Part shown: piece by piece, positions 13,134 to 62,264 of the stretch | Position numbering within the stretch: the first letter of the stretch is position 1 | Layout: the number at the start of each line of letters is the position of its first letter | Source of the DNA: a virus | Length of the DNA: 64,000 nucleotides | Reading direction: 5' to 3' (one strand) | Virus record (IMG/VR): IMGVR_UViG_3300037247_001314 | Span: 32,001 to 96,000 of that record | The notes under the pieces: model-generated | Told to the model about the DNA's origin: nothing | The model's database searches: none | Seen by the model: the letters and a program-made list of their open reading frames with translations, nothing else | Position numbers and translations under genes: made by a program

Positions 13134-13485
13134 GATAAAGTGCGACCGCGCGTCGCTTTTTCTTTGGCCCCAGTACGGCTCTCGCACGCCAATCAAACTC
13201 CTCTGCTGTCCCGCGGAGAACAGTAGCCAGTCGGCCAGCCCGATCCCGAGCCTTACCTAGGGAGCGGTAAGGCGCATCGTGGTCGCAACGGGCGGTGGTC
13301 TCCTGGTGCTGGGCATGAACGGTGTACGTTTTGAACTGCGGCTGGTGTTCGATCCATACGTCCCAAGTTCCATGATCGAACTTCGGTTCCCAGCGTAGTC
13401 CGGGCCCAAAGTTGGTCCCGCTGCCCTCCTCAGGAACGGCGCAGCTCTCTAAAATCTGAGCAGTGAGTCCAAACATGCAAATCAC
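13120..13485 (-). CDS. Hypothetical protein
   Basis: GTG 13485 overlaps the upstream stop; C-terminus KKKRRAVAL. Confidence 0.6.
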   Translation of the reverse strand: MICMFGLTAQILESCAVPEEGSGTNFGPGLRWEPKFDHGTWDVWIEHQPQFKTYTVHAQHQETTARCDHDAPYRSLGKARDRAGRLATVLRGTAEEFDWRARAVLGPKKKRRAVALYRQMS

Positions 13486-13859
13486 CAAATCCAAGAGAGC
13501 GTGACCGGCCGCCGTTTCTTCTTTGGCGCCGAAGTAGGGAGAAACTCCCAATCGTAAAGCGTCGCGTCCTCGTTAGTTTTAGCAGGATCTAGCACCGCCG
13601 AACCGAACTGGCTGTTACTGCCGAAGAACTGCTGTTGCGCTGATGGCCGATACTTCCGACGAGCAATGAGTCCTAAGCGCTCCGCCGCCATCAGCGTCTG
13701 GCGCATGCGGTCGACGTTGTCCGAAACACCGAGTTCACCCGCCATCATCACGAGCTTCTCGCCGTGGATTATGAATCCGGTCCAGCTCGACGCCACCAGA
13801 GCCTCCCAAGCCTTGCCCCCGTGGAGTTCCAAAATCTGTGCGTCAGTGAGTCCAGACAT
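13482..13859 (-). CDS. Hypothetical protein, possibly winged helix
   Basis: 125 aa, coupled start; C-terminus KKKRRPVTL. Confidence 0.65.
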   Translation of the reverse strand: MSGLTDAQILELHGGKAWEALVASSWTGFIIHGEKLVMMAGELGVSDNVDRMRQTLMAAERLGLIARRKYRPSAQQQFFGSNSQFGSAVLDPAKTNEDATLYDWEFLPTSAPKKKRRPVTLSWIW

Positions 13860-14377
13860 CAGCAGTACCCCGGCGTGCGCTTGAGCCTGCGAAACTGTGC
13901 AGCCGGATCCAGCACCACGTACTCCTTGCGCTCAGTGCGCCTACCGTCGACGAGGTATCTGGACACCCTCCACGCCACCACAGGCGCCTCAAGGCGGGCG
14001 AGGTCCATGAGCAACGACATATCCCGGCCGTGAAGGCTAGCCCCCTTCCTGTCCAGACGCTTGCGTAGGACGTCAGCCGTCACCGTCTTGGGCCTGACGT
14101 AGAAGCAGTCCGGGGTTTTGGCGTAGCGGTAGGGCGTGTCTGGAACCATCTGGTCTGCCCGCACCAGCGGGGTGGGTTTGTCCTGTGGTGGGTTGATACG
14201 GCCCACTCTGCCAGCAGCGAGCGCCTTCACGTTGGCGATAACGATGTCCCCCGCGGATATCAAGATGGTTTCCCGCGGGGTTTGTTGGGCGAAAGGCAAA
14301 TCTTGCTGTGCGGTCGGCACCTGCAACGTCACGCCGCGCTTCTTTTTCTTGCGAATCTTTTTCTTCTTGGGGAACAT
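13859..14377 (-). CDS. Basic hypothetical protein
   Basis: Start at ATG 14377 (MFPKKKK...KKKKRGVTL) after GGGGGA. Confidence 0.6.
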   Translation of the reverse strand: MFPKKKKIRKKKKRGVTLQVPTAQQDLPFAQQTPRETILISAGDIVIANVKALAAGRVGRINPPQDKPTPLVRADQMVPDTPYRYAKTPDCFYVRPKTVTADVLRKRLDRKGASLHGRDMSLLMDLARLEAPVVAWRVSRYLVDGRRTERKEYVVLDPAAQFRRLKRTPGYC

Positions 14378-14379
14378 AC

Positions 14380-14565
14380 TCAGTCCCCCACGAGGGTAAA
14401 GGTCTGCGCGTCGGTAGTCTTGGTGACGAGAAAGGTGAACCCGTTTATGCGCACCCAACCGGCCAAGTCCTCCAGTTGTCCAGCAAGCACTTCGCGTTCC
14501 TCGTCGTCAAGGTCGGCGCGATTGAAGGCAAGTAAAATATCTTCCAGGCAGCGATGCGGATCCAT
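14380..14565 (-). CDS. Small hypothetical protein
   Basis: MDPHRCL...LAGWVRINGF; TAATG coupling. Confidence 0.65.
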   Translation of the reverse strand: MDPHRCLEDILLAFNRADLDDEEREVLAGQLEDLAGWVRINGFTFLVTKTTDAQTFTLVGD

Positions 14566-15125
14566 TAGTCTTTCCCCTCTTTTTCCAGACGCCGACACTG
14601 TTCATTGTAGAGCGCGGGCGCCATCTGCCCCTTCTCTGTGATTTGGTAATGGCCTTGCTTGATACGCACGACCAAGCCGAGTTGCTTGGCGCGTACGAGT
14701 CGCGTGTGAGTCGCGTTGCTCGCTAGGTCTAACCGCTTCTGCACTTCTGCAGCGCGCAGCGTCGCATTGGGAGGGAACACCATCAGCAACTCCAAAATGT
14801 TTCGAGCGATGCGCCTACCAGCCACCGGTGTTTTAGGCGCACCAGACGAAGGCTTTAGGGCTGGGGCGGATGTGAGCACTGCGTAGGCGTCAAGGAGACT
14901 GAATAACGGCGACACGTACCGCGCGTCTACGGGGAGGCCGAGGCGCCGCACATGGTCTTCGGCGAGACGCTTTACTCGCACCTCATTACGAAGATACTCA
15001 AGCTCTACTTCTGCAGCCTGAAGTTTTCGCTCACTGTGCACCACCACGAGAGCATGGGTTTTTCCGAGGCCCTTGCTCACCCAATAATCCCGGCGCTTTT
15101 CCGCATGCTCGTCGGAGAACGTCAC
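14565..15125 (-). CDS. Winged-HTH protein
   Basis: C-terminal LRAAEVQKRLDL...TRLVRAKQLGLVVRIKQGHYQITEKG. Confidence 0.7.
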   Translation of the reverse strand: MTFSDEHAEKRRDYWVSKGLGKTHALVVVHSERKLQAAEVELEYLRNEVRVKRLAEDHVRRLGLPVDARYVSPLFSLLDAYAVLTSAPALKPSSGAPKTPVAGRRIARNILELLMVFPPNATLRAAEVQKRLDLASNATHTRLVRAKQLGLVVRIKQGHYQITEKGQMAPALYNEQCRRLEKEGKD

Positions 15126-15634: not shown

Positions 15635-15652
15635 GTGGTGCTCCTTGCATCT

Positions 15653-15691: not shown

Positions 15692-15700
15692 TAAGTTTAG

Positions 15701-16909
15701 TTAGATCTGAATAGTGACAGCGCGCTTCACTGGGCGGCGTTCCAGATAAGCGCTTATGAACGCCTGCGCTTGCGGAGCGACGATAGCGTTTCCGTAGGCG
15801 CACAATCGCCCCACGCGGTTGGCAACCCCATGAGCCAACGGGAATGTGCCGGGTTCAACTGGCCGGGCTTTTCCGTCGGTGCAGGGGATCCAGTCAGCGT
15901 CTCCCCAATAGCTCTCTCCGCGTCCAAGGCTAGACAAGCGCAACCGTGCTTCGTCCCGTGCTTGGCCTTCTGCGTTCGGCTGCGTCCTCTGGCGTCGTGC
16001 GCTTGCGGTGTCGTCCAGTGCGCGGCGTGCAACGCTGCCGCCTTCAGAGCCACCCCTCCTTGCCGTCCCGGGGGTATCTGTGGCCCCGTGCCGTCGTTCG
16101 CTCGGGGTGTGGGCCAATGGGCCCGCGTCGCTCTCGTCGGCAGATCGTCGTGTGTCGCTGACCGCTCTTTCCCAACTGACCTCGTCGATGCTCCCTTGTG
16201 GTCGGTGGCGTTCGGCGTCGGCCAAGTTGCCAGCTGCGCTTGTAGGTTGAGGCTGGTCAGCGACACACCCAGCTTGAATCCCTTCGCTATCGCCGCTCTT
16301 TTTCTCGCCAGGAACTGCTCCGGCGTGCCTCCCGCTTCGCGCGCTGCAGGCGTTGCCCATGGAGCCGCTTCTTCGACCGATAGGTTGATGTTGCCGTTTG
16401 CCACGCTCGTCGTGGGCAGACCAATAGAGTCGTTTCCTTTGGTGCGGGGCACCGAAACCACAAGCCGCGGTAACTGCCGCCCCGACGGTGTATCCGCCAC
16501 TTTCCAGGTCTGTCGATACAAGGTCGAGCCAAGTTTCGCCTGGCTTACCCGCAACCTGTTCGCCAAAGATGTTGTGAGGAGCGCACTGCTCAATGAGCCA
16601 GAACCAGGAGGGCCAGAGGTGCCGCTCGTCAGCAAACCCCGCTCCTTTGCCTGCCGCGCTGAAAGGTTGGCAAGGACAACTTCCAGTCCAGACGGGACGG
16701 TCATCGGGCCAACCCGCGTTTCTGAGCGCCAAGCTCCAGACACCTATTCCCGCGAAGAAGTGACATTGTGTGTATCCTTTCAGCTCCGATGGAGTGACAT
16801 CCTCAATGCTCCGCTCATCGACGTCACCAGGTGCGATATGTCCTGCAGCAATAAGATTGCGGAGCCATTGCGCAGCGTAAAGGTCAATCTCGTTGTAGTA
16901 CGCGACCAC
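15701..16909 (-). CDS. C5-cytosine DNA methyltransferase, catalytic (alpha) chain
   Basis: Motif I HFFAGIG, catalytic GSCPCQPFS, motif VI FGEQV, motif VIII HQRKRLY, motif X AYGNAIV. Confidence 0.9.
15754..16743 (-). CDS. Overprinted methyltransferase partner (beta) chain with repeated TRD-like units and motif IX; start uncertain
   Basis: 329-codon open alternative frame nested inside the MTase; W[PAT]TP repeats; [15 protein letters not shown] resembles motif IX, which the main frame lacks. Confidence 0.7.
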
Positions 16910-19375: not shown

Positions 19376-19669
19376 CTATTTGCGTTTGCCCAAAAGGTCC
19401 TTGAAGACCTCCGTCGGCTTGAAACCGACCGTGTTGTGCGCGGCCTTCTTCCACGTCTCGCCCGTGGTTGTGCCCGGCACCTTGCCCGAGCTCGCTTTCT
19501 TGTGGCGCTTCTTAAAGGCGCCAAAGCCGCTCAACGAAAAGCGGCCTTCCGTCTTGACGCTGTCCATCGCCTGCTGCTGGAAACTCTCCAGCGCCTTGGT
19601 AGCTTCGCTCTTGGAAATGCCGGCGTCGGTCGCGATGCCCTCGATGAGGGCGGCCTTGGTGATGCTCAT
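19376..19669 (-). CDS. hup: HU-family DNA-binding protein
   Basis: ITKAALIEGIA...LSGFGAF...VPGTTTGE...VGFKPT; CAGGAG RBS. Confidence 0.92.
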   Translation of the reverse strand: MSITKAALIEGIATDAGISKSEATKALESFQQQAMDSVKTEGRFSLSGFGAFKKRHKKASSGKVPGTTTGETWKKAAHNTVGFKPTEVFKDLLGKRK

Positions 19670-20372: not shown

Positions 20373-20606
20373 TCAGGCTGCCAGCTTTTGCATAGCGCAT
20401 CGAATGTGATGGGGTAGGTGCGCGAGGGGTCGGCGGACGTCAAAGCCCGAGGCCACAGCGATATCGCGCAGGAGCGCCCCCATCGAGACTGCGTCCCGCT
20501 CAGCGTGATTCTTGTCCGCTTTGCTGTTGCTGGCCTCTGCCTGCGCTGAAGTGCAATGTGACCGCGCGCTTGCGAGGTCGGTCTTTAGCTTTTCGATTTG
20601 AGTCAT
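20373..20606 (-). CDS. Coiled-coil hypothetical protein
   Basis: AAGGGGG RBS; 77 aa. Confidence 0.6.
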   Translation of the reverse strand: MTQIEKLKTDLASARSHCTSAQAEASNSKADKNHAERDAVSMGALLRDIAVASGFDVRRPLAHLPHHIRCAMQKLAA

Positions 20607-20982
20607 GGCTTGCCCCCTTCTCTGCGGTTAGATGTCCAGACGAGTATATCGGTTCGGTCAACATCGTGCGGGCAACGCGAGACATGTCTCCCATTTCAAA
20701 CGCCGCAACGCGCACGCTGTTAGACACCGGCGCACCTTCCAGACAGTTTTCGATTCGTTTCGCTTGGTCGCAAAGTGCATCGAGCACGACGCCAAGACGC
20801 TTTAGTCGCACCGCTGGGTCTTCGGGGAAATGCTGCGGGCCGTCCTCGAGCTTGGTCTCGTAGCCCATGCACGTGCCGCAACCTGGCTCAAAACAATACA
20901 GAGTATGGTGGACGATACGGTAGAGTTCTTTCTCCCGCTTCGACAGCTGCGTTGGTGTCCGGCCCTGCTTCTTCTTTGCCAT
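20500..20982 (-). CDS. Hypothetical protein
   Basis: MAKKKQG..., HTLYC...CGTC; 3' end overlaps the next gene by 107 nt. Confidence 0.6.
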   Translation of the reverse strand: MAKKKQGRTPTQLSKREKELYRIVHHTLYCFEPGCGTCMGYETKLEDGPQHFPEDPAVRLKRLGVVLDALCDQAKRIENCLEGAPVSNSVRVAAFEMGDMSRVARTMLTEPIYSSGHLTAEKGASHDSNRKAKDRPRKRAVTLHFSAGRGQQQQSGQESR

Positions 20983-21030
20983 CCCAACAACCGTAGGCAT
21001 ATCTCCAGACAGACGTCCAGACCGGCCAGG

Positions 21031-45190: not shown

Positions 45191-46288
45191 TCAACCCTCC
45201 ACTTGAATGAGAGGCCACACAGCCTCGACGAAACGATCGCCCTCCAAACGAAGAGGGTCCGTCGGCGTGGAATAGCACAGCGTAATGGTGTCATCCGTCA
45301 TATTGTGCAACGCCTCCCAAAGGAGCTTACCTCTGTAACGCGTAACGACAAGCGGGCCTGTTGCGTCGAAAGGGAGCGACTGCGCGTACTTCACCTCGCC
45401 GTCGGCCTCGATGCCTTGGATGCTAATCAACCCTTCCCCAAAGCGGAGTTCTACCTGCTGAGACATCACCGAGTTCTGCGCGTGCTTCACCGCCTCCTTA
45501 AAATGAACACGGTCAACGGTAGCGCGCAGCCCGAGGTGGGCGTCTGGAAGCATCGCCGAGAGATTGAAATATTCTTCAACGTCCAGACACCTCGCGAAGC
45601 GGAGCTCGTCATTGACCCAGAAAAACGCGTGGTCTTCCTGCCAGCCCACCGCCATACCCAGCGGCGCCTTCTTTTTGAGAGGCCACTGGTCGAATAACTT
45701 CGCGGGCACCAGCCTGGATTCGTGCGTGAGCGCCAGCGACGTGCGAGCTATGCGGTTCTGGTCGGTAGCCTCAGTCCACTTCGGATGGAAGTGCACCCCC
45801 ATGAGCGCAGGCCTTTCACGGCCGTCTTTAGTGTCCTTCTGCGCAGCGTGAAGAACGCATTTGATGTGGGGCCAACCATCGAAACGATGGAGTTCTGTAG
45901 GAAAACCGGGGAACGGGGGAAACTCCGAGCCGTCCTGGCAAGGGATTACAAACTTGTGGCCAGACTGCAAATCAATGCGGGCGGTCTGGACGCCGGTGAC
46001 CTCGACGGTGAACTTGATGCCCTGTTTCGTCCCCTTGAACGCAGTGACCACAGCTGCAGCCTGCATCGTAAGATCCGGCACGGGGTCTATGGGGTCGACG
46101 ACGATGAAGACGCCGATGCTCCCATCTGTGGCCGTCACGTAGCCGGGGAAAGCCGGCCACCAGGCACCGCCCTCGTCCTGTGTTAGGTCGACCGGAGGCA
46201 CGCAACGTATGCAGTTGAGCGCCCGGCCAGCAGGGTCCTTCGCCGCAAACTTCGCGGCACGAAGTAAAGCATCACGTAATCGCATCAT
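45191..46288 (-). CDS. DNA polymerase III beta-clamp-like protein
   Basis: 365 aa; VTATDG, EFPPFP, RPALMGVHF, EATDQNRIA; three-domain clamp repeat pattern. Confidence 0.8.
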   Translation of the reverse strand: MMRLRDALLRAAKFAAKDPAGRALNCIRCVPPVDLTQDEGGAWWPAFPGYVTATDGSIGVFIVVDPIDPVPDLTMQAAAVVTAFKGTKQGIKFTVEVTGVQTARIDLQSGHKFVIPCQDGSEFPPFPGFPTELHRFDGWPHIKCVLHAAQKDTKDGRERPALMGVHFHPKWTEATDQNRIARTSLALTHESRLVPAKLFDQWPLKKKAPLGMAVGWQEDHAFFWVNDELRFARCLDVEEYFNLSAMLPDAHLGLRATVDRVHFKEAVKHAQNSVMSQQVELRFGEGLISIQGIEADGEVKYAQSLPFDATGPLVVTRYRGKLLWEALHNMTDDTITLCYSTPTDPLRLEGDRFVEAVWPLIQVEG

Positions 46289-47072
46289 CGCCTCCCAAGG
46301 TTTTCGCTCGTCGTTGTTTAAGGATCGCCAGCGCGGCAGAGCGCACCTCGTCCGTGGAGAGTTTTGGTTTCTCCAACCCAACAGGCCCGCCGAGGGTCCC
46401 CATAGCGTGACCTGCGGCGGCGCCCGCGCCGTAACCCGGTGTGGCCGTGACCTGCAGAATAGCCTCAGCCATCTCCTCGCGGACTTTCACGAGTTTGAGC
46501 AGCGCGTCGACAGCCTTGTCCCCAGACACACCAAGAAACGGATCGAAATGCTGGTGACGAGTCATACCGCAAACCGCGCACACCTCGACGACAGTGTCAC
46601 GCCGACCCGGAAGGTTGACAATATCGCCAGGTTCCCAATCGTGGTCGAGGGGAATGAGCCGCCTGAAAAGATGGGCCTGGATTTTCTCCATCTGCTCGAT
46701 GATCGCTATCTTTCCCTTGATGAGCTTGTTGCCAAGTTTTGTCTCTATCTGGATGCGCCATCGGTCGAGGAGTTCACGACGACGTGGCCCCCAGTTGTCC
46801 TTGACGCTCCACTTCTCGAACGTCGACAACGGGATTGATTGGAACAACGGATCCTTGTTGAGTTCCGCAACTGAAATCCCATTAAGGTCGGTCGTATACT
46901 GCAGTCCCGCCGTGTATTGCAGAAAACGGCGACTAGCATCCGAGCCCTCAGGCACGTCGACATAAACCACTTCGGGGGCAAGAATGCGCACTGCTCGCTT
47001 TTTCTTTTTCGCGGGCGCTTTGCGTCTGGCCACCGCTTTCTTTCTTGTAGGAGCTTTCCTCTTCGACGCCAT
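46272..47072 (-). CDS. HTH protein, possibly terminase small subunit-like
   Basis: ISVAEL...IPLSTFEKWSVKDNWGPRR followed by helical region; CAVC...H. Confidence 0.5.
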   Translation of the reverse strand: MASKRKAPTRKKAVARRKAPAKKKKRAVRILAPEVVYVDVPEGSDASRRFLQYTAGLQYTTDLNGISVAELNKDPLFQSIPLSTFEKWSVKDNWGPRRRELLDRWRIQIETKLGNKLIKGKIAIIEQMEKIQAHLFRRLIPLDHDWEPGDIVNLPGRRDTVVEVCAVCGMTRHQHFDPFLGVSGDKAVDALLKLVKVREEMAEAILQVTATPGYGAGAAAGHAMGTLGGPVGLEKPKLSTDEVRSAALAILKQRRAKTLGGDDAIT

Positions 47073-47380: not shown

Positions 47381-47644
47381 CTAAATGAGTTGGGGCACAC
47401 CGTCGCCGGTGCGATAGGTCCAACCCTCAACTTTCCAGGTACGGTAAACGACCTCCATATGGATGCCATACTCACCCTCGGGCGTCGGGATTTCGCGCGT
47501 CCTAACCTTGCCCTTCTCATCGACATCCACAGTACACACCTCGTGCGTGCTGTCATCCAGCCAGATACAGCGTGGGACCTCGTCGCCGTTGCGGTCGTAG
47601 ACCTTCGTCGTGCAAAAGTCCGGATGCTCGCTATCGATTCGCAT
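47381..47644 (-). CDS. Hypothetical protein
   Basis: MRIDSEH... start at ATG 47644. Confidence 0.6.
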   Translation of the reverse strand: MRIDSEHPDFCTTKVYDRNGDEVPRCIWLDDSTHEVCTVDVDEKGKVRTREIPTPEGEYGIHMEVVYRTWKVEGWTYRTGDGVPQLI

Positions 47645-48050
47645 TCTTCTCGTTTCGCTTGCGCTGGGTCTGGACATCTCGCTCAGTCGCGGTCTTCTTG
47701 TCGGAGCATGCGCGGCACATCACCTGAAGGTTAGCGAGTTCGCAGAACATCGACGCGACGACGAGGTCCCACGACACGAAGCCGACAGCAGGGTCAATGA
47801 TGGGAACGATGTGGTCGACGATGACATTGTTGATTCGCTTCTTCTTGGACTTGTGTCCCGGTGGGGTAGGGATCGACGACGTCACCACCTTGTTGCATGT
47901 AGAGCAGAGGTACATTCCTCGGCTCACCTTGGCGTTGCGCTTAGCCTGTTGAATCGGTGCCCACTTCATTGACGCCTGCCTCAACGCGCTCTTGATAAAA
48001 CTCCTGTAGCGCGCCTCTGTCCAGACGTTGCCGCACCTCGTGAGCGGCAC
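47631..48050 (-). CDS. HNH endonuclease
   Basis: YLCSTC...VDHIVPI...NLQVMCRACSDKKT; start at GTG 48050. Confidence 0.85.
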   Translation of the reverse strand: MPLTRCGNVWTEARYRSFIKSALRQASMKWAPIQQAKRNAKVSRGMYLCSTCNKVVTSSIPTPPGHKSKKKRINNVIVDHIVPIIDPAVGFVSWDLVVASMFCELANLQVMCRACSDKKTATERDVQTQRKRNEKNANR

Positions 48051-48075
48051 TCCGCCCTTACTGAACGGGACATTG

Positions 48076-48705
48076 CTAGTCGTTCTCAGGCTGAGCGGGA
48101 TCGGGGCCGGCGCTGGTGTCGATACGGGAAGCACCAACTGCAGCGGGGGTGCCGGGCTCGGTGACTTCCGCACTGTCCTCTTCCGCGAAGTCGCCGCTGA
48201 TGTCCGGGAGTGCGCCCGCGAAAGGGTCGAGGCGAGGTGCAGCATCACCGCTCGCTTCTTCTTTCGCTTCAAGTTCGCGAACGGCTTCAGCGTTAGAGGT
48301 CTTGGCTCGGTTGACAAGGGCCGCAGCGAGCTTCTCGGGGTCGGCATTCTCTACTCCCTTGAACGTAGCCACGATTTCTTCCTCGCTGAGAGGACCCTCA
48401 ACACGGCAGAGTTTGAGATTATTTGTCATAACGATGACAGGCTTGCCCAGCGAGTCCATCACGCGCTGCTCGATACTGCGCGCCATGTCGTAGCTGCACG
48501 TAGGGGGCACGAGGACAACGAAACAATCTTCGAACGGGGTATCGATGATTTCGGCTTTCGGATGGTCCTGGATGAGGGTCTCCTTTATCGTCGGACCAAT
48601 ACCGTCCTGTTGGTCAGCTTGTACGACCTCCATCGGGACTACTCGCCAGAAAGTATTTTCCTTCGCGATGTGTCGGCGGGCGCGGCGTTTTGATGAACTG
48701 CTCAT
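48076..48705 (-). CDS. Hypothetical protein with acidic tail
   Basis: 209 aa, ATGA coupling to sbcC. Confidence 0.65.
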   Translation of the reverse strand: MSSSSKRRARRHIAKENTFWRVVPMEVVQADQQDGIGPTIKETLIQDHPKAEIIDTPFEDCFVVLVPPTCSYDMARSIEQRVMDSLGKPVIVMTNNLKLCRVEGPLSEEEIVATFKGVENADPEKLAAALVNRAKTSNAEAVRELEAKEEASGDAAPRLDPFAGALPDISGDFAEEDSAEVTEPGTPAAVGASRIDTSAGPDPAQPEND

Positions 48706-52283: not shown

Positions 52284-53516
52284 CTAAGGTAGAGCGTTGT
52301 AAATCTGGACCGCGGTAGCAAACAGCTTTGGGTCCTCGTGAAGTTTTTGACCGAAGCCGATGAATGAGTTCTGGAACCTGATGTCGTGTCCGTCCGTCGT
52401 CGCGAAGGTGTGCCAACCACCGCCGACGGTAATGTACTTATATTCGGTAAGCTTCCAGAAGAGAGGCACGACGTCGTCAATACCGTTCCCCCACATGATG
52501 GCGAACCTCTCATTGCGCCACGGCACGCCGACGTTGTTCTTGTTAAACTTCGACAACACCTCGATGCCCGCGAACGTGCCGTCGCCAAGCTTGATGGCTT
52601 CAGTGCGTACGAGTTCAATGCGCAGCGTCGAAGCGAAACGAAGCGCGAGGCCACCATAGGTGATGGTCTGGGAACCCTTCTGGAACTTCGCAGCAAAGCC
52701 AGTGACGATTTTGGTGTAGACCTGATTGACAGCAAAGAGCGTAGCGTTGGCTCGAGCAAGCCTCTCTGGGAGCGTGCGCATAGCCCCCTTGAGCAACTTC
52801 GCTGCTTTGCCTGGCGCTTGCGCCTCGTCGGTGCCTTTATCAAACTCCGACTGCGAGGGGGTTTGCCCGACGCTGTCCCAGACTACCCCGAGCGGAATGT
52901 CCCCAAGGCCACGGGCGACCCAATGGTCAAGCGCGCGTTCCATCGCATCGATGACCGCCTCAAAAGTATGGCGTGCGGGTTGAATGACGATAAGCGCATC
53001 AGCGTCGACTCCAAGGCGGGCCACGTAGGGGAGGTCCCATTTGTGCTCGACATCGACAACCATGGCGACACCACCGACACTTTGAATCTCCGCAATAGCG
53101 TGCAGAACCACCGTGGTTTTGCCCACACTCTCCTTGCCACTGATCTCGATGATGCGACCCCGAGGCCAGCCGCCGATACCTGTGCCTTTGTTCAATGCGA
53201 TACATCGCGCCGAAGTGGTGCCGGCGCTGTGCCCAATGACGTTGGTGTCGGAGAACACCAGCACCTCGACAGGGTTGTAGACGCGTTTGGGCGCGTTCTT
53301 ATCACTCTTGTTGCCCTTGTCTTTTGCCGCCCCCTTTCCCGTCGTCAGCGTCTTACCAACAATGGCAGTCTTAAAATCGCTAGCAACGTAGACGCCCTGC
53401 ACAGGCTTCTTCGTCTTCTTCGCCTTCGTCTCCTTTTGCGCCGCTTTAGGCTTTGGTGGCGACGACGAGTCCACAGCGCCAACAGTAACAGCGCGCTTTT
53501 TCTTCTTAGCTGCCAT
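52284..53516 (-). CDS. recA: RecA-family recombinase with basic N-terminal extension
   Basis: GIGGWPRGRIIEISGKESVGKTT, DVEH, VWDSV, NQV, TYGGLALRFAS. Confidence 0.95.
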   Translation of the reverse strand: MAAKKKKRAVTVGAVDSSSPPKPKAAQKETKAKKTKKPVQGVYVASDFKTAIVGKTLTTGKGAAKDKGNKSDKNAPKRVYNPVEVLVFSDTNVIGHSAGTTSARCIALNKGTGIGGWPRGRIIEISGKESVGKTTVVLHAIAEIQSVGGVAMVVDVEHKWDLPYVARLGVDADALIVIQPARHTFEAVIDAMERALDHWVARGLGDIPLGVVWDSVGQTPSQSEFDKGTDEAQAPGKAAKLLKGAMRTLPERLARANATLFAVNQVYTKIVTGFAAKFQKGSQTITYGGLALRFASTLRIELVRTEAIKLGDGTFAGIEVLSKFNKNNVGVPWRNERFAIMWGNGIDDVVPLFWKLTEYKYITVGGGWHTFATTDGHDIRFQNSFIGFGQKLHEDPKLFATAVQIYNALP

Positions 53517-53531: not shown

Positions 53532-54896
53532 TCAGCCGCGCATTTGTGTCTGCAACTGCTGGAGGCCTTGGGGCACCTGCTGTTGTTGCTGCTGGGGTTG
53601 TTGCATGTAGACCTGTCCCGGCGCAGTCGTGCCTGTGTGGCCTGGACCGTGTTGGAACGTCGTCGCCACAGGTTGCCCTTGTTGTGCTGGGTAGATGCCC
53701 CCAGGAGCCGGCTGCTGCGGGGGAAGTGCGGCATAGACCGGCTGACCTGGAGGCTGGCCCATGGTGGTCGGGTAACCACCGTAGGGATTTTGTGCTGGCG
53801 CGTTTGGCGCGGGCGAGTAAGCAGGTTGCTGCTGCGGAACCTGCATTTGTTGTTGGCCCTGCGGGAGCAGCATCGGTTGCTGCTGCGGCAACCCACCTTG
53901 CTGGCCTTGTGCAGCCAACTGTGCTTGTTCTTGCTGCACGAGCGCTGGCAGCTGCTGCGGAACAGGAAAGCCCATCGCAATGATGGCCTGGTACTGCTCG
54001 CCGAGCGTCGGCTGCTTCACAAACTTCGTGAGGTCGTACAAGTTCTGGAAGGCTGGATAGAAATACTGGTCGAGGGGCCGCGGATCGAGGTCGTCGATCG
54101 ACCAGTCGATGTCGAAGTTGTTGGAGCCCTTCTTCTTTTTCTTGAGGATGAGCGGGCGGCCGTATTGCGGGTGCACGATTCGCGCGAGCGTTCGCGTTTT
54201 AATCTTCTCCCAAATGTCGGTGTGCAGCCCGCCAGGAGCTCGGAAGAGCCACGGAACAAAGCGACCGTCTGGAGTGAAATGTGACTGGTAATGCTCCAGC
54301 AGAAGAATCTGGTAGATGGCTCGTTTGCTGAGCTTGCCCGCGTCCTGCGCTTTCTTGGCGTCAACCTCGCTGCCGGTCTTGAACATCGCATTGCGTGCAG
54401 CACAGACCCAGCACCCGTTGCCTGCGCAAGTGATGCCTGTGCCCTGCGGCTTCTCCTGCGTGCGGTAGAAATGCGACGGGTCGTCGACGTAGTTGAGCAT
54501 TCCAGCCGCCCACGGGGGGAGCAGCCAGATGACGTAGCTCGCCTCGTAGCCGATAGGAACGTTCGCTCCCCACTTCGGCTCGCCAGCGGGGCCAAGAGGT
54601 GAGAACCAATGCAGGTCGCCGCCGCCACCTTGGCCCGAGCGGATACGGGCGATGCGAGCTTGTTCCTCAGCCGCACGAGCGAACGCCTGCTGCACAAGCG
54701 CGTCGTCGGGCATATGGATGACGGGCATCATCCCCGCTTGCTGTTGGGGCTGTTGCTGCACCTGCTGAACGGGAGCCCACACGCCCGCCTGAGTCTGCTG
54801 CATCGGCACGGTCGCAGGCTGCGTGGGTTGCTGCTGCTGTGGATAACCGGTCGCGGGAGCACCCGGCTGGGGATACGGGTTGTAAGGCTGATTCAT
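53532..54896 (-). CDS. gp32-like single-stranded DNA-binding protein with Q/P-rich termini
   Basis: Core IWLLPP...HFY...C...CWVC...GRPLILKK; sits between recA and the UvsY-like gene. Confidence 0.72.
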   Translation of the reverse strand: MNQPYNPYPQPGAPATGYPQQQQPTQPATVPMQQTQAGVWAPVQQVQQQPQQQAGMMPVIHMPDDALVQQAFARAAEEQARIARIRSGQGGGGDLHWFSPLGPAGEPKWGANVPIGYEASYVIWLLPPWAAGMLNYVDDPSHFYRTQEKPQGTGITCAGNGCWVCAARNAMFKTGSEVDAKKAQDAGKLSKRAIYQILLLEHYQSHFTPDGRFVPWLFRAPGGLHTDIWEKIKTRTLARIVHPQYGRPLILKKKKKGSNNFDIDWSIDDLDPRPLDQYFYPAFQNLYDLTKFVKQPTLGEQYQAIIAMGFPVPQQLPALVQQEQAQLAAQGQQGGLPQQQPMLLPQGQQQMQVPQQQPAYSPAPNAPAQNPYGGYPTTMGQPPGQPVYAALPPQQPAPGGIYPAQQGQPVATTFQHGPGHTGTTAPGQVYMQQPQQQQQQVPQGLQQLQTQMRG

Positions 54897-54944: not shown

Positions 54945-55466
54945 TCAAATCGACATACCCGTCAAACTTTGATCGCTAGCGCGCCAAACCCACTTGTGGA
55001 GGTTCTCGCGCTTAGCTCGGAAAGCCGCAACTACGCCCTTGCACGAGTGTGCGGCTTCCTTCACTTCTTCCAGACGACGGTGAATAGGCGTGTACTCCTC
55101 ATGGCAGCGGTAAAGGTCCTCTAGCTGTGCCACAGTCACCTTCTTGCCCGTGGCCGGATGCTCGTCTGCCGCGTGGTCCAGACGGAAGCGAGATTTCCAG
55201 ATGGCATATTTGCGTTCTTGATGCTGGACCACGCGCTCGCATTGGGCCTCCAGACGGGACCACCACGCAACTTCTGCTGTGACTCGCTCACACTGACCGC
55301 CAAGGTCAAACTCCGAAATGCTCACAGCAGGAATCAGCGTGCTGCCCTCGACGCGCATGTGCGCGACGAGTTCGTCGGTGGCCTCGTCGATGAGATACGC
55401 GGTGAACGGTCGCATCTGCTGTAGGACCTTCATGTACTCGCTTGTCGTCGTCACGCCTCGATTCAT
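54945..55466 (-). CDS. UvsY-like recombination mediator
   Basis: Long helical hairpin, KKVTVAQLE...AFRAKRENL; SSB/RecA context. Confidence 0.6.
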   Translation of the reverse strand: MNRGVTTTSEYMKVLQQMRPFTAYLIDEATDELVAHMRVEGSTLIPAVSISEFDLGGQCERVTAEVAWWSRLEAQCERVVQHQERKYAIWKSRFRLDHAADEHPATGKKVTVAQLEDLYRCHEEYTPIHRRLEEVKEAAHSCKGVVAAFRAKRENLHKWVWRASDQSLTGMSI

Positions 55467-57421
55467 ATGGCTATCCCTCGTTTCTCGGCCCAGTTGGTGG
55501 TCATGACCTCAACGTCCGTCTCAGGCACGATGGGGCGGAACTCGTGGAAGTCCTCCATGATGTGCTTCACACCGCGCGAGATTTCTACGAAGTATTGAGA
55601 CGGCGTATCGATCTGAATCTCGTCGTGAATCGTCGAGCACGGCTTCATTCCAATGTTGTGCTGATGGTTCCACTTATGTAGACGGACGATGCTCTTTTTC
55701 ATCAGGTGCGCAGCTGTGCCCTGGATGAGCGTGCCAATAGCTTTTCGCTCAGCCCGCCCTCGCTGGTAGGCGTCGAGGTTCTTCATACCCGGCACACGTC
55801 GCGGGCGCCCGTACAGGTTTTGAAAAAAGCAATCGTTTTGACGCACGTGAGCCCAGAACTCGCGTCGGAATGGAGCGATGCGTGGGTACCGCTCGAAAAA
55901 TACGAGCATGAAAGCTTCAGCCTCAGCGAGCGGAATCTTCGCCTGCCGCGAGAACCCTTTGGCCGAAAGGCAATATGCCAGCCCAAAGTTGACAATCTTC
56001 GCGTCTCGGCGTTTCCCGTCAGGGCCCCCAACTTCCAGACGCGTACGCTCGTGAATGTCTTCGCCTTTGAGATAGACGTCGATCATCGTCGGGTCTTGGG
56101 AGTAATGAGCAAGAACGCGGAGCTCAATCTGCGAATAGTCGTAGTAACCTCGACTCCAGCCTTCACCGCGAACCACAAAAGCACGCTTCACAGACCATGG
56201 GTCAAAGCCCCCGTCCTCAAGGCTCTTGCCCGTATGTGCTATCGCGCGCTTGTCACTGTCGCCCGCAAAGTTCTGAAGATTGGGCGATGACGACGACAAC
56301 CGTCCAGTGTTGGTGCCCAGCTGGCGCAAGTCGCCGTGGAGTAATCCATCGTAGCCAATGCTTTTGAGAATACTGTCGGTGTACGTCGTAGAGATTTTGC
56401 GCGCCTGGCGCCACTGGAGGATAAGCTCCATCGCCGGATGGTCGTCGGCGAAATGCTCCAGCACTTCCTTATCCACCGACATCGCGCCCGTCTTTGTTTT
56501 CTTCCACATCTTGAGCCCAAGTCTTTGGCTCATGACGTGTCGGAGCTCGTCATCACTACCGAGGTTAAACTGGTAGCCGCCGAGCGCGTGCATTACCTGC
56601 GGCTCTAACTGGTCCTGAGCAGCCTCGGTGATGCGTTTTAGATGGTGGATGTAGTCCACGTCGAGAGGAAGCCCGTTTTCCTCCATCTCAATGAGCGCAC
56701 CCGTAAGGTCTATCTCTAGCTCGTACGTGCTCGCAAACTCAGTACGAACGTTTTTGGCGTCGTATAGCCGGGCAAGGTCCCAAGTAAACTCAGTGTCAAA
56801 ACAGGCGTAAATACCGGTCGTCTGGATGGGCAGCTGGCTATAACCAAAGCGGTCCTTGTATTCGGTCTTACCGTACGGCGACTCCTTTACACGCCGATTG
56901 ACCTCGTTATCGAGGATAGCCTCGTAAACAAGAGCGTCTGGACGTTGTAGATCCACCACTGCGCGCATCTTCAAAGCGAGCGGGACATTCTCGTCAGCAA
57001 GAGCCGCTTCGATCATCGTGTCGCGACGTGGGCCGAGCATGTCGATGCCGTCGGCGCGGACCATGTGCCAATCGAACTTGGTGTTGTGGCAAATCTTCTC
57101 GATGTTGGGGTTCTGGACAATGTCCCGACATCCCCTAAGCGCGAGCCCCTCGTCGAGCTGAAGCTCACCGGTCTGATGCCTGAAAGGGACGTACCAAGAC
57201 TGCAGCGCACCGTCGGGCGAGCAAGTGAACGAGTAGCCGCAGATGCGCGCGTGCCGGTACCAGGCTGTTCCAGACGTCTCCGTATCAAACGCCACAGACT
57301 TCTGCTGCAAAAGCACAGCCATCATCCACTGGAACTGTGACAGCGTCGTCACCACCTGACGACGCGGGTCGTTAGGCCGCGCGTGGTAGTCGAACGCTCG
57401 TGCTTGAATATAGAGCGACAA
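55463..57421 (-). CDS. polA: Family A DNA polymerase with 3'-5' exonuclease
   Basis: ExoI AFDTET, HNTKFD, TGRLSSSSPNLQN, motif A DYSQIELR, motif B RRDAKIVNFGLAY, motif C IHDE. Confidence 0.96.
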   Translation of the reverse strand: MSLYIQARAFDYHARPNDPRRQVVTTLSQFQWMMAVLLQQKSVAFDTETSGTAWYRHARICGYSFTCSPDGALQSWYVPFRHQTGELQLDEGLALRGCRDIVQNPNIEKICHNTKFDWHMVRADGIDMLGPRRDTMIEAALADENVPLALKMRAVVDLQRPDALVYEAILDNEVNRRVKESPYGKTEYKDRFGYSQLPIQTTGIYACFDTEFTWDLARLYDAKNVRTEFASTYELEIDLTGALIEMEENGLPLDVDYIHHLKRITEAAQDQLEPQVMHALGGYQFNLGSDDELRHVMSQRLGLKMWKKTKTGAMSVDKEVLEHFADDHPAMELILQWRQARKISTTYTDSILKSIGYDGLLHGDLRQLGTNTGRLSSSSPNLQNFAGDSDKRAIAHTGKSLEDGGFDPWSVKRAFVVRGEGWSRGYYDYSQIELRVLAHYSQDPTMIDVYLKGEDIHERTRLEVGGPDGKRRDAKIVNFGLAYCLSAKGFSRQAKIPLAEAEAFMLVFFERYPRIAPFRREFWAHVRQNDCFFQNLYGRPRRVPGMKNLDAYQRGRAERKAIGTLIQGTAAHLMKKSIVRLHKWNHQHNIGMKPCSTIHDEIQIDTPSQYFVEISRGVKHIMEDFHEFRPIVPETDVEVMTTNWAEKRGIAI

Positions 57422-57471: not shown

Positions 57472-58629
57472 CTAGAGCTTCCAGAACTTCGGACTCGACC
57501 AGTTGGCCATCGCGCGGGTGCCCCCACCGTCCCCCTGGCGAGCGAAGTCCTTGGTACCGGTGATGTGCACGACGGTGGCGTAGAGAGTCTCGTATTTTCT
57601 ACCAGACATCTTGTAGCCGTCCCTGAGGACAGTCACCTTCCACTCCTTGCCCTCGTACACACGCTTCAAAACAGTGCCCGTCTTGAGTGCTGCAACTTTT
57701 GGAGAACGCGAACGCTCCCGAGCAAACCGAGACATCACCTCGCCAATACCTTTTTTCTTCGCGGGCGCTTTCTTGGGAGCCGTCTTCTTCGTCGCTGACG
57801 TTTTCTTGCTCACAGCCTTTTTCTTAGAGACAACCTTCTTCGCGACTTTCTTTTTGGCCACCACCTTTTTAGCCGCAACCGCCTTTTTCTTCGCGACAGT
57901 TTTCTTCTTCGCGGCTGCTTTCTTTTTAACAGGGGCCTTCTTCGCCGCTACTTTCTTCTTATTTCGGGACATACCCGTATCCTTCGCGTTCTCGTCCCCC
58001 ACGGTAACCTCGACGACAACAGTACCGTCTGGCAGCGAGAGTTCATCTGAATCCGATTCTTCCGCCGAAGAAACTTCTTTGGCGTCCTCGTCGCTGGCCC
58101 CACCTAGGACGAGCGAAAGGCCCCCACCCTCTGCGGGCTTCGTCTCAACGGTAGGTGGTTCTGGGGCAACGCCCTTTCGCTGTGCAGCAAGCGCCTCAGC
58201 GAGTTCTGGCGTTGGTTCAGCTTGAGGGCCAATAAGAGCCTCGATGGGGTTCCCTTCGACGTCCTCCCGCCACTTACCTGTCGGGTGCCCACCCTTGTTA
58301 CGCGCCAGCAAAGGAAGCAGTTTGCGACCCAGAGTGATGCCGTCGACACACTCTGCCCCCATCGCCTCAGCAACGTCAGCATCGTCTGCGGTTTGCCCGT
58401 TGTCGACGGCGCTCTTCCCGAGCTTCTGAGTTTCGATACCAGGGATTTTACGCGCAATAATCATAATGCAGCGGTCGCGCACAAGGCACGTTCCCATACA
58501 TACGCTCTCATCCCCCTCGTCGGTGTCGTCTTCAAAAGCCGAGCCGTAGCACTCGTACTCGCGTTGGATCTTCTTGTCGTTCCATTGCCGAGGGTCAAGA
58601 ACACGCGATTCATCTGCTTCATTAGCCAT
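57472..58629 (-). CDS. Histone H1-like K/A-rich protein with C-terminal DUF2924-like domain
   Basis: ~70-aa KKKAAAKKK tract; GTVLKRVYEG...YETLYATVVHITGT...WSSPKFW. Confidence 0.75.
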   Translation of the reverse strand: MANEADESRVLDPRQWNDKKIQREYECYGSAFEDDTDEGDESVCMGTCLVRDRCIMIIARKIPGIETQKLGKSAVDNGQTADDADVAEAMGAECVDGITLGRKLLPLLARNKGGHPTGKWREDVEGNPIEALIGPQAEPTPELAEALAAQRKGVAPEPPTVETKPAEGGGLSLVLGGASDEDAKEVSSAEESDSDELSLPDGTVVVEVTVGDENAKDTGMSRNKKKVAAKKAPVKKKAAAKKKTVAKKKAVAAKKVVAKKKVAKKVVSKKKAVSKKTSATKKTAPKKAPAKKKGIGEVMSRFARERSRSPKVAALKTGTVLKRVYEGKEWKVTVLRDGYKMSGRKYETLYATVVHITGTKDFARQGDGGGTRAMANWSSPKFWKL

Positions 58630-59573: not shown

Positions 59574-59581
59574 GAGCTACC

Positions 59582-60643
59582 TCACAAAAGCAATGTGCCT
59601 GGTGAAAATGGCTGGGCGTGTGCGCGATAGGCATCGAGTTCGGCACGGCTGTAGTCGCCGGGGTCGCCCCGCGGCAGAAAAACTAAACGGACATCCATGA
59701 ATGCGGAGAGCTGACCCGCGGCTTGAATCATCGACTCCCAAGCCCCGCGGGGCTCCTTTGGTGTCGGGCCATCCCACATGAAATCGACCGCGCGCACACC
59801 AGCGTCGACGAGTCGCGCGATTTGCTGCGGTTGCAGTTGTTTGCCGAACGTCGCGACGGCTGAAGGGCCCGCGCGGATGCACGACGTCGGGCCCTCGGTG
59901 ATGCACACTCTCGGGTAGGCCGCGGCCTGTTCCAGGTTGAGCACCACATCGCCCGAACCGAAATACCAGATGCCGCCGCGCTCTTGGGACGGGTTGAGCG
60001 TCTTGCGAAACTTGTCCTTGCCGACAGTGCCGTCTTTGCGGGTGAACGGACGAGCCACGTGCTCGTCCTCGTCCCACATCGCTCTTGCCTGCCAATAGAT
60101 ACATTGCCCACGCTCCCAAACAGGAAACACCAGCCGATTAGCCAGCCATCCAGACGCACACCACCCAAGGCCAAAAAGCCTCGCATCTTCCAGCGTAATC
60201 TGTCTTTTGCTAAGGTAAGGCATACTGCCCGCGATAGCAAGCGTTCCATCTGGAAGACCTGTCGGGCATACTGCCGGGGGCGTTTTTTGTCCAGAGAGGA
60301 ACGAAGTTTCCGGGAGTTCCGTGGGTGAACCTAAAGCATGGCTCACAAACTCGGCGATGCGCTGGATAGCCTGGCTGGTGTTCAAGCCCTCCAACCACTT
60401 GACCAGACCGAGCGCGCGGCCGGCGCCGGCAATGGCGCGCTTCTTACCAAGGGCATCCACCAGATACTTCTCGCAGCGGAAGCAGCGCCAAAACCCCGTC
60501 GACGTGTTGATACTGAGCTTTGCGAGTCCGCATTTCGGGCAGCCCAGAAGCAGTTCGTTGCGCCCCTCACGCTCAGCCGCGAACCCCTGCAGGTACCGCT
60601 CGACGTCAAACCGCTGCAGCAGAAGGTCAAGGTTTTCTTTCAC
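59582..60643 (-). CDS. DNA primase (Zn finger plus TOPRIM)
   Basis: CPKC...CFRC, RLVFP, WQAR, ITEG, ATFGK, WDG, DPGD; GTG start at 60643. Confidence 0.88.
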   Translation of the reverse strand: MKENLDLLLQRFDVERYLQGFAAEREGRNELLLGCPKCGLAKLSINTSTGFWRCFRCEKYLVDALGKKRAIAGAGRALGLVKWLEGLNTSQAIQRIAEFVSHALGSPTELPETSFLSGQKTPPAVCPTGLPDGTLAIAGSMPYLSKRQITLEDARLFGLGWCASGWLANRLVFPVWERGQCIYWQARAMWDEDEHVARPFTRKDGTVGKDKFRKTLNPSQERGGIWYFGSGDVVLNLEQAAAYPRVCITEGPTSCIRAGPSAVATFGKQLQPQQIARLVDAGVRAVDFMWDGPTPKEPRGAWESMIQAAGQLSAFMDVRLVFLPRGDPGDYSRAELDAYRAHAQPFSPGTLLL

Positions 60644-60792
60644 CAGGCGCAGCGCCCGGCGCCCATGAGCATCAGCCAAATGACGTCGTCGTCAAATGGG
60701 TCCGGCTCTGCGGGGACAAGATACGTGAGGTCGTGCCAGACGAAGCTAACCCCAATCACCGCAGACTCGAAAAAACCTTTCTTTCGAGCCAT
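60640..60792 (-). CDS. 50-aa protein not in the ORF track
   Basis: MARKKGFFESAVIG...RCAW*; fills the helicase-primase gap with a GTGA overlap. Confidence 0.5.
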   Translation of the reverse strand: MARKKGFFESAVIGVSFVWHDLTYLVPAEPDPFDDDVIWLMLMGAGRCAW

Positions 60793-60794
60793 CG

Positions 60795-62264
60795 CTACAC
60801 CCCCTGCTTCTGCTGCCAGCTATTTACGCCACTAGAATAACCAAGCGGGTGCGTCGTCTGCACCGTCGTCGTCTGTAATGTGGCTGGCGCAGGCATCTCA
60901 CCACCGATTTTCATCCGTTGGAAATCACAAGGCACCAACATCTCAACGTCAGCCGCATTGTCCCGCAGAAGCTCAACATAAAGCCTCATGACCCCTTGAC
61001 GCCGTTCTTCACGCGTCTGGTTGATGGAGCCCACCATGTCAGCAATGCGCACCTTCGCGTAGCAGTCGGCGATGTGTTTGCTCTTGAGGATATCCTGGAT
61101 GTCGTCGAAGTCGTCGTCCTTCGGGCGCTGCACTTGGCTCGCCGTCCAAACCGCGTAGCCGCGGTTAGCCAGCGTCTTGCAGTCCTGGAATGAAGCCTTC
61201 TGACTGTCGGTGTCGCTTTTGTACCCGCCCGGTCGCGGTCGACCGTCGAGGAGGTCGCAGTAGTCGATGATGATGACGTCGGGCTTCCACCCGTGCGCCT
61301 GTTTAAGCTCGCGCATCTCATTCCAGATGTGCGTCATGTTGAAGTCCCACTCGTCAGTGAACGCGCGCACGACACACTGCTGCCTGAGCATCTGCATCTC
61401 TTGATAGGCCAGCGCATAACGGGGGGCGTCGATCTCTCCTCGACGGACGTTCGTGTAGAGCTCCTCAGTGAAGACGGTATCGTAGCGATCGGCGATGTAC
61501 TCGCCCGACCCTTCGAGCGGGATGTGCAGCACCTTTCGGTTGTACGCGCGCAGGGCCACCGCGCCCTTGTTAACGAGGAACGTCGTCTTGCCCGCCTTCG
61601 GCCTGGATAGCCACACGCCGAGAAATCCCGGGTGAGCTCCGCCGTCGAGCGTCTTGTCTAGGAGCGGAATGCCCGTACCCGTGTGTCTGCCCTGCATCTC
61701 CAGCGACTGACGACGGATGTGCCGGTCAGGAAGCTCGTCCATAAGCCATTGCCGGTCTGGGCTTTCCCACGCGACTGAATGCAGCGAGTCCATACGCGTT
61801 TGCATAAGGTCGTACGCGTCGTCGACCTTGCCCGCGTTGAACAAGTCGCGCGAGTCAATGAACGCGTCACGAAAAACCTGGCGCTTGATAAAATCCATCG
61901 TCTTGTCGCGTAACCAGGGCTCGTCAGTAACTGGGCGCTCGCGGACACCATTGAGCACAGCCGCAAAGATGGGCTGGATGTTGGCATCGAGGGTGCGCAC
62001 CTGGTCGAGGACCACGAGCAGCGTCGGGAACGTTCCGTACGTTTCCGAGTACCACTGCGCGAAACCAAAGGCCCACGCCATCGCCTCATTCTGAAAAAAC
62101 TTAGGCTGAAGGTACTTGGCCACCTGTCTGGCGAAGGCGCTGTCCTCTAGGAGAAGCCGGATGAGCATGCCCTGGAACACAACGCCAAATGCGCTACCGA
62201 GGTCTTCTGCTGCCGGCGTCGCTTGCGGGCGCTGCTGTATGAGAGTGACGGCGCGCCTATCCAT
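60795..62264 (-). CDS. DnaB-like replicative helicase
   Basis: TGIPLLD, Walker A RPKAGKT, LEG, IIIDY, VWTASQ. Confidence 0.9.
   Translation of the reverse strand: MDRRAVTLIQQRPQATPAAEDLGSAFGVVFQGMLIRLLLEDSAFARQVAKYLQPKFFQNEAMAWAFGFAQWYSETYGTFPTLLVVLDQVRTLDANIQPIFAAVLNGVRERPVTDEPWLRDKTMDFIKRQVFRDAFIDSRDLFNAGKVDDAYDLMQTRMDSLHSVAWESPDRQWLMDELPDRHIRRQSLEMQGRHTGTGIPLLDKTLDGGAHPGFLGVWLSRPKAGKTTFLVNKGAVALRAYNRKVLHIPLEGSGEYIADRYDTVFTEELYTNVRRGEIDAPRYALAYQEMQMLRQQCVVRAFTDEWDFNMTHIWNEMRELKQAHGWKPDVIIIDYCDLLDGRPRPGGYKSDTDSQKASFQDCKTLANRGYAVWTASQVQRPKDDDFDDIQDILKSKHIADCYAKVRIADMVGSINQTREERRQGVMRLYVELLRDNAADVEMLVPCDFQRMKIGGEMPAPATLQTTTVQTTHPLGYSSGVNSWQQKQGV

Follow-up and report, generated by a model that had tools for sequence, protein, structure and literature searches.

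A basic-aliphatic peptide recurs on the ends of unrelated proteins of an uncultured phage and may dock them on one hub

The window analysed in this study is a stretch of 64,000 nucleotides, positions 32001-96000 in one virus contig of 106,804 bp (IMG/VR record IMGVR_UViG_3300037247_001314), which belongs to an uncultured phage of about 107 kb with 58.5% G+C; this genome is called G000 below. We found that the same short peptide, basic and then hydrophobic, is present on the loose ends of at least 12 unrelated G000 proteins, including the DNA polymerase, a DnaB-like helicase and RecA. The motif is almost certainly real at the protein level. It is probable (about 0.65) that the peptide is a docking tag for one hub. 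The phage's own sliding clamp is tentatively proposed as that hub, in which case the peptide would be a phage-specific clamp-binding motif.

The peptide and its carriers

The core of the motif is composed of two basic residues, a small residue (A, G, P or S), V or I, usually T, and then an aliphatic residue, and a longer run of K/R often stands in front of it. A sequence-only reading of the window had listed the peptide on eight proteins, and all eight sites were found where it had placed them, in the coding frame of minus-strand open reading frames (ORFs). Nearly all G000 genes are on the minus strand, as are all the carriers in the window.

The DnaB-like helicase (gene 60795-62264) has RRAVTL at residues 3-8 (62241-62258; MDRRAVTL, 62241-62264), and RecA (52284-53516) has KKKKRAVTV (MAAKKKKRAVTV) at residues 4-12 (53481-53507). 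The C5 cytosine DNA methyltransferase (15701-16909) carries the motif at its C-terminus (15704-15727). The PolA-type DNA polymerase (55463-57421) ends in NWAEKRGIAI, whose last six residues, KRGIAI (55466-55483), are motif-like and were found only once the search pattern was widened. The HNH-endonuclease ORF (47631-48347, 238 codons) has KRAVML at residues 31-36 (48240-48257), with KRKKKRAVMLHL near its N-terminus. The carriers with a known function were said to act on DNA; this holds, and the polymerase and the HNH nuclease now join the list.

Among the remaining carriers in the window, a protein of 266 amino acids (aa) encoded directly upstream of the clamp gene (46272-47072) has KKKKRAVRI at residues 22-30 (46983-47009), and a search with it gave only a weak atlas lead to helix-turn-helix (HTH) or small-terminase-like clusters (score 0.88). 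The product of 20500-21000, 166 aa long and of unknown function, has RKRAVTL 24 to 18 residues before its C-terminus (20554-20574). Three adjacent small genes are all carriers: a 172-aa protein of unknown function (13859-14377) has KKKKRGVTL at residues 10-18 (14324-14350), a 125-aa protein (13482-13859) has KKKRRPVTL near its C-terminus (13497-13523), and the product of 13120-13494, approximately 124 aa long with an uncertain start, has KKKRRAVAL near its C-terminus (13138-13164). The products of 13120-13494 and 13482-13859 have a common 20-residue tail (DW...KKKRR[AP]V.L) on unrelated bodies. Four more carriers are encoded beside the head genes, beyond the window. RRRAVTLFK is internal in an InPase-domain protein of 833 aa and KKKKTPVTLQVV is internal in a 2465-aa protein; a 103-aa protein ends in KKKKKKAVTFVVPQ, and a 128-aa protein has ARAVRVV near its end.

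The carriers have only their tails in common, since BLASTP among six of them aligned just tail pieces of 7-20 residues. The earlier statement that the motif sits outside the folded domains was borne out by the domain envelopes. The motif occupies residues 7-12 of RecA (Pfam match 99-347), 3-8 of the helicase (PHROG match 33-453), 395-400 of the methyltransferase (PHROG match 1-390) and 647-652 of the 652-residue polymerase, in which the Pfam DNA_pol_A match (257-645) stops at residue 645. Only in the methyltransferase, the polymerase and the helicase is the copy at most two residues from the protein end; the other copies are 6-30 residues away.

Enrichment and selection at the protein level

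The pattern first noticed, [KR]R[AGP]V[TAR][LIV], gave nine matches in coding frames in a six-frame scan of all 106,804 bp, one match in a 31-codon non-coding minus frame and none in the three plus-strand frames. With [KR][KR][AGP]V[TAR][LIV], 10 matches were found in the 146 called proteins (34,341 aa), nine in tails or linkers and one internal (ORF 5407-6513). This frequency is far above chance: 0.34 matches were expected from whole-protein shuffles and 0.41 from shuffles of 12-residue blocks, none of 300 shuffles of either kind reached 10, and the reversed proteome had one match. The pattern was defined after the data had been seen; nevertheless, the excess is about 25-fold. A widened pattern, [KR][KR][AGPS][VI][TARMV][LIVF], gave 14 matches against 1.10 expected. 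Twelve of these are terminal (within 40 residues of the N-terminus or 25 of the C-terminus) against 0.37 expected, one of the 12 being in a doubtful ORF. In an unsupervised count of reduced-alphabet 5-mers on protein ends, '+++ah' (10 ends against 1.19) and '++aho' (six against 0.84) ranked among the highest in G000.

The sequence-only reading had placed the conservation at the level of protein, and the codons agree with it. In the 12 sites compared, all four bases are used at third codon positions, which alone vary freely, and the first and second positions are nearly fixed. Because of this, selection must act on the peptide. The V/I and the final aliphatic residue are invariant, and there may be as few as 2 basic residues or as many as 10, a pattern more in keeping with a pocket than with charge alone. 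In place of Thr, four of the 12 sites have A, R or M, and A, V or E is found there in orthologues from G001, a relative described in the next section.

Retention in related phages

G001 is an IMG/VR relative of 110,147 bp with terminal repeats and 50-85% protein identity to G000. G002 and G003 are more distant relatives, with helicase identities of 47% and 37%, respectively.

The orthologues retain the motif to a considerable degree: among 11 comparable proteins, G001 keeps it fully in five, keeps it partly in four and has lost it in two. The five are the helicase (MDRRPVTLYQ), the polymerase (ending in NWSEKRSITV), the counterpart of the 20500-21000 protein (RRRAVTLHF), the 833-aa protein (RRRAVTLMRK) and the HNH nuclease (VVKRAVTIHRV). 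One core position is off in the 266-aa protein (RKAVVM; KTRKAVVMAPEV), RecA (KKAVTA, in KKTRKKAVTA), the 103-aa protein (KKAVEL) and the methyltransferase (C-terminal PRAATLFW), and the motif is lost from the 2465-aa and 128-aa proteins. In the 20500-21000 protein, RRRAVTLHF is unchanged between G000 and G001 amid flanks that have diverged with insertions and deletions; a homologue search with this protein returned itself as the sole match. No orthologue of the three adjacent small carriers (13120-13494, 13482-13859 and 13859-14377) was found in G001-G003.

With the widened pattern, G001 has five matches, compared with the 14 of G000. G002 has five matches against 1.10 expected, which equals the shuffle maximum of five, and three terminal matches against 0.27 (shuffle maximum four). 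Examples in G002 are ARKAITVPEV on the orthologue of the 266-aa protein and a C-terminal tail, RRAIVLHFKGP, which resembles that of the 20500-21000 protein; the RecA of G002 has MATKRKVTRG. In G003 there was no excess of the motif (two matches against 0.96 expected, and one terminal match against about 0.28). Genome-specific versions of the motif were sought in G002 and G003 with BLOSUM probes made from the tails of the polymerase, the helicase, RecA and the 266-aa protein, and nothing scored above shuffled tails; the unsupervised 5-mer counts on protein ends of these two genomes showed no pattern comparable to that of G000.

The helicase peptide reaches further. In 38 of 66 helicase homologues, [KRH]x[PA][VI] was found within the first 30 residues, compared with one of 66 for residues 31-60 and three of 66 for reversed N-termini. 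The peptide of this helicase clade is basic-x-Pro-Val (RTPV, RQPV, RRPVTL), and the domain, which starts with FPFGxEFQ, follows it after a few residues. These sequences suggest that the peptide is ancient on a small set of core replication proteins and that the G000 lineage later sharpened it and spread it to many others by copying.

Two other tails were compared with the motif. The sequence-only reading had taken the end of the portal protein, ERRAAVLHIDLDL, for a related motif. It is a different motif, because the part that is conserved in the relatives is an alternating hydrophobic/acidic end: the C-terminal strand of the portal (936-2852) is IDLDL in G000 and G001, IEVEV in G002 and LEVEV in G003. 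DPRRQVVT near the N-terminus of the polymerase, which is conserved in all four genomes, was left out of the motif count; by comparison with Klenow, it presumably aligns with the first strand of the exonuclease domain. The HNH ORF overlaps the last approximately 270 bases of the upstream gene 48076-48705 in another frame, and its basic N-terminal region is overprinted on the acidic tail of that gene; both frames and the arrangement are kept in G001.

The phage-encoded sliding clamp

The candidate hub is a divergent DnaN-type beta sliding clamp of 365 aa, encoded by G000 on the minus strand (45191-46288). The ORF matches phrog_947, 'DNA polymerase processivity factor' (E 1.5e-23). An AlphaFold2 model from an 83-sequence alignment had a predicted local distance difference test score (pLDDT) of 95.2 and a predicted template modelling score of 0.91, and its best Foldseek matches were bacterial beta clamps (E about 1e-22, template modelling scores 0.72-0.80, 13-18% identity). 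A profile of the clamp family matched beta clamps of the PDB with an E of 8.7e-24, and a search of 1.84 billion proteins gave 345 representatives of the family at E<=1e-3.

The clamp is also encoded in G002 and G003. In G000 and G001, the gene of the 266-aa carrier lies immediately upstream of that of the clamp; in G002, the two are separated by another ORF. For two single clamps (P0006 and P0007), nothing was found in viral contigs, and a metagenome scan yielded one 2.8-kb contig. On the 2.8-kb metagenome contig L015, which encodes a clamp of 28% identity, a homologue of the 266-aa protein (205-966), which has no AVTL, is separated by one ORF from the clamp downstream of it. The 266-aa carrier may be a functional partner of the clamp.

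A complex of two clamps (83-row alignment) with residues 125-166 of the 20500-21000 protein was modelled and gave scores of 0.02 and 0.02 (mark 0.32), in a trial for which the controls were not folded and which weighs neither for nor against binding. Clamp entries with griselimycin were among the Foldseek fold matches. Griselimycin is a cyclic peptide that binds the cleft of the beta clamp and is rich in Val, Pro, Thr and Leu, and is taken here as a lead only.

Discussion

The sequence-only reading had suggested a tag for one hub, such as the clamp, a replication compartment or a protease adaptor. The two outcomes that it had named as refuting its idea, a frequency at chance level and orthologues without the motif, were not observed. 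The clamp has gained from the finding that G000 encodes one (45191-46288) and that the motif forms the end of the polymerase, and nothing in the data pointed to a replication compartment or a protease adaptor. We favor the clamp because the peptide is terminal, flexible and short, has invariant hydrophobic residues, and is present on unrelated DNA enzymes, including the C-terminus of the polymerase, in a phage that encodes a dedicated clamp. The polymerase is the obligatory client of a clamp, and it ends in the motif in both G000 and G001. The three neighboring carriers found only in G000 are what would be expected if newly acquired genes were given an address tag.

If the clamp is the receptor, the peptide would act as a short linear motif on flexible N- or C-terminal tails that plugs into the hydrophobic client cleft of the DnaN-type clamp. 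Docking would hold the polymerase, helicase, RecA, C5 methyltransferase and HNH nuclease on the phage DNA, either at the fork or behind it, along with the HTH-like protein encoded next to the clamp and a number of small accessory proteins. Electrostatic attraction between the basic flank and the clamp, or the DNA that the clamp encircles, may strengthen the binding. Insulation from the host clamp is possible because the sequence is unlike the bacterial QL[SD]LF, and this difference could keep the phage clients on the phage clamp and off that of the host.

Several observations weigh against this assignment. The peptide has no resemblance to QL[SD]LF, with no Gln and no Leu-Phe. The copy on the polymerase is the weakest (I for V, A for T, and two basic residues) and was counted only after the pattern had been widened. 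G003 encodes the clamp and has no motif excess, and G002 encodes the clamp and has a small terminal excess only, so the presence of one does not simply imply that of the other. A clamp loader was sought in G000 with PF13177 and PF06144, with zero matches for each. The replicative helicase and RecA are not classical clients of the beta clamp, and the clamp is not an obvious partner for the four head-region carriers of 833, 103, 128 and 2465 aa. In a broader scheme, a private code unlike QLxLF would serve as a general address that also covers accessory and head-region proteins. It would park cargo on DNA about to be packaged, so that a single hub, kept apart from the host clamp, would link replication and DNA modification to the loading of proteins for injection. 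We give this scheme little chance.

Docking may also be on a hub other than the phage clamp, either another phage protein, such as primase or a 454-aa protein (53532-54896) that may be the single-stranded DNA-binding protein (SSB) of the phage, or a host protein, such as the beta clamp, a DnaK-type chaperone, or a protease adaptor or unfoldase. All the support for a docking motif applies equally to such a hub. The basic-x-Pro-Val peptide of the helicase is old (38 of 66 homologues) and may have served a helicase-specific partner before other proteins copied it, and the head-region carriers fit a hub outside the replisome better. In T4 and E. coli, the polymerase, helicase and RecA share SSB as a partner, and ClpX-type tags are known at both N- and C-termini, including basic C-terminal tails such as that of MuA. 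However, no candidate receptor stands out, the known SSB hubs have the reverse geometry, with the tail of SSB itself docking on its partners, and a degron common to polymerase, helicase and RecA would be costly. The 454-aa protein, encoded between RecA and the polymerase and kept in G001-G003, is very rich in Q and P towards both ends and has a CAGxxCxxC cysteine cluster in its conserved core; it matched no family in Pfam or PHROGs and no PDB sequence, and its AlphaFold2 model from three sequences was unusable (pLDDT 47.5). Taken together, another hub is possible, with a chance that we consider minor and yet not small.

Readings without a hub fare less well. A DNA-binding arm, with the basic run on the backbone and a short strand in the groove, would give extra DNA affinity by itself. 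All the carriers of known function act on DNA, those of the head region could travel with packaged DNA, K/R runs of 4-10 residues precede eight sites, and the proteome has other basic K/A/P-rich tails, for example the HC2-like repeats in ORF 57472-58629. Yet it is the hydrophobic core that is conserved and not the charge, and the helicase (MDRRAVTL) and polymerase (EKRGIAI) have only two basic residues beside an acidic one. Of the 20 K/R runs of at least four residues in the proteome, seven are followed by [AGP]V.[LIVF], in one case after one extra residue, and 12 have no V-x-aliphatic next to them; a further run without it is the first one in the 13859-14377 tail. Since most such runs lack the core, the core is no by-product of basic tails. 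To our knowledge, there is no DNA-binding motif of such a form, and we hold an arm of this kind to be improbable. We judge a recognition site for an enzyme, for phosphorylation, Arg ADP-ribosylation or protease cleavage or recognition, to be about as improbable. A basic residue at -3, Thr at 0 and an aliphatic residue at +1 resemble basophilic kinase sites, and an ADP-ribosylglycohydrolase gene is present in G000 (41707-42765; E 6.9e-59). L-F-K|A comes directly after the motif of the 833-aa protein, and a cut there would create a new C-terminus bearing the motif. Against these points, Thr is replaced in four of the 12 sites and in G001 orthologues and the invariant residues are hydrophobic; a cut at residues 3-12 would free few residues, and replication proteins are not expected to meet a head protease. 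It is very improbable that the copies have no common function and reflect Lys-rich codon runs near gene ends (translation effects or A-rich spacers) and chance. The pattern was indeed set post hoc, the 20-residue tail common to the 13120 and 13482 products may be a local duplication, and the expansion is largely that of one genome (14 matches in G000, five in G001). This reading is nevertheless largely refuted already by the frame, shuffle, codon and G001 data: the excess is 25-fold with zero of 300 shuffles reaching it, the plus frames have no match and the non-coding minus frame one, synonymous variation is confined to third positions, and the peptide is retained in G001 amid diverging flanks, with K-to-R changes that remove the A-richness.

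To return to the phage clamp as the proposed receptor, there are precedents for short client motifs. PIP-box (PCNA-interacting peptide) clients of PCNA include DNMT1, so that a cytosine methyltransferase and replication and repair enzymes ride a clamp via a short terminal motif, often with basic flanks; that clamp belongs to a different family and the motif, Qxx[ILM]xx[FY][FY], is eukaryotic and archaeal. The bacterial QL[SD]LF motif (Pol II, III, IV and V, MutS/L, Hda and ligase; MuC and Mor of phage Mu) is alike in being a motif of 5-6 residues on termini or loops of DNA-metabolism proteins. It binds the DnaN cleft, whereas the G000 sequence is unrelated (no Gln, no Leu-Phe, a basic prefix) and the clamp is the phage's own. 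Membership of the peptide in the QL[SD]LF or Q-x-x-L-x-F consensus was rejected, since no site has Gln at position 1 or a terminal Leu-Phe.

The closest likeness is to the clients of gp45, the phage-encoded clamp of T4 and RB69, which have similar short tails on unrelated proteins, including the extreme C-terminus of the polymerase (excerpts of PMC2988020 and PMC7892883). The clamp-binding C-terminal tails of T4 gp43, gp55 and gp33 are described in the former as 'highly similar' and interchangeable, with divergent linkers, and the clamp tail of T4/RB69 gp43 sits at the C-terminus of the polymerase (PMC2988020, excerpts). The systems differ in that gp45 is a PCNA-like trimer and the G000 clamp is of DnaN type. 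The T4 tails are hydrophobic and acidic and C-terminal, whereas the G000 peptide is basic and then aliphatic and is found at either end, and its docking is what we infer here. The candidate client list of G000 is also longer than that of T4, with helicase, RecA, methyltransferase, HNH nuclease, accessory and head-region proteins. In phage Mu, MuC has clamp-binding motifs at both the N- and C-terminus (PMC12867686). According to PMC4889955, homologues of the PolIII beta subunit are known in phages, and less than half of viral processivity factors are accompanied by a loader; a PolA-family enzyme is reported in a preprint to bind DnaN (bioRxiv 10.64898/2026.09.19.751633). In the open-access papers covered, where a search cannot target a peptide pattern as such, we found no paper on a basic-aliphatic motif for a phage DnaN-type clamp.

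Clamp-docking end-peptides as such are thus already known, and the basic-aliphatic version differs from both the T4 tails and QL[SD]LF. If the clamp is the receptor, a DnaN clamp, of bacterial type, would be using a client code very different from QL[SD]LF for an unusually wide client list, spanning the replicative helicase, RecA, the C5 methyltransferase, the HNH nuclease, small accessory proteins and perhaps head cargo. It would provide a ready-made orthogonal pair of clamp and peptide and would make it possible to predict which of the uncharacterised phage genes have a role at the fork. The three carriers found only in G000 would be a test case for the spread of short docking motifs to newly acquired genes. 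If the receptor is something else, the peptide would be a handle with which to fish out the hub of an uncultured phage clade.

Genome context and other observations

By Pfam and PHROGs, G000 encodes the portal and large terminase in a head module, and its module for replication and recombination comprises the PolA polymerase, DnaB-like helicase, primase, RecA and SbcCD. It also encodes ThyX, Dam and C5 methyltransferases, HU, an amidase and the ADP-ribosylglycohydrolase. The host is a bacterium, because G000 has an N-acetylmuramoyl-L-alanine amidase, an HU protein and Shine-Dalgarno sites. Among 50,697 phage records, G000 had no nucleotide-level match, and the clamp and a distant helicase homologue had zero tblastn matches.

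The sequences GPKKKRRAV and APKKKRRPV in G000 strikingly resemble the nuclear localisation signal of SV40 large T, which is PKKKRKV. The likeness is superficial, and a classical nuclear localisation signal was rejected: eight sites have a basic cluster, but the gene content and ribosome-binding sites are bacterial, the V-x-aliphatic core is absent from such signals, and the helicase and polymerase have two basic residues.

A DNA-level element was likewise rejected as the source of the recurrence. A promoter-like repeat (ATGTCTTGACAG...TGCCCGCTG) follows two of the sites, yet it is found at six places without the peptide, and the third codon positions of the peptide vary. The repeat reads (A/T)TGTCTTGAC(A/G)G and then ...TGCCCGCTG-TA..., with a -35 box of the TTGACA type, and its six copies are on the minus strand before genes, at about 13128, 15686, 16960, 19211, 39014 and 42825. 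The six probably form one phage promoter class.

The HU-type gene (19376-19669) has an odd codon-position G+C compared with its neighbors (0.86 at third and 0.48 at first positions), a profile that hints at recent acquisition; its nearest genome matches are of 45-54% identity only, in bacteria of unrelated phyla. The portal of G001 (61205-64246) has 1013 aa compared with 638 aa in G000, and its large terminase (67941-71060) has 1039 aa compared with 644 aa, with high identity on both sides of the extra part in each protein. This suggests that the approximately 375-395 extra residues in the portal and terminase of G001 are inteins or other insertions.

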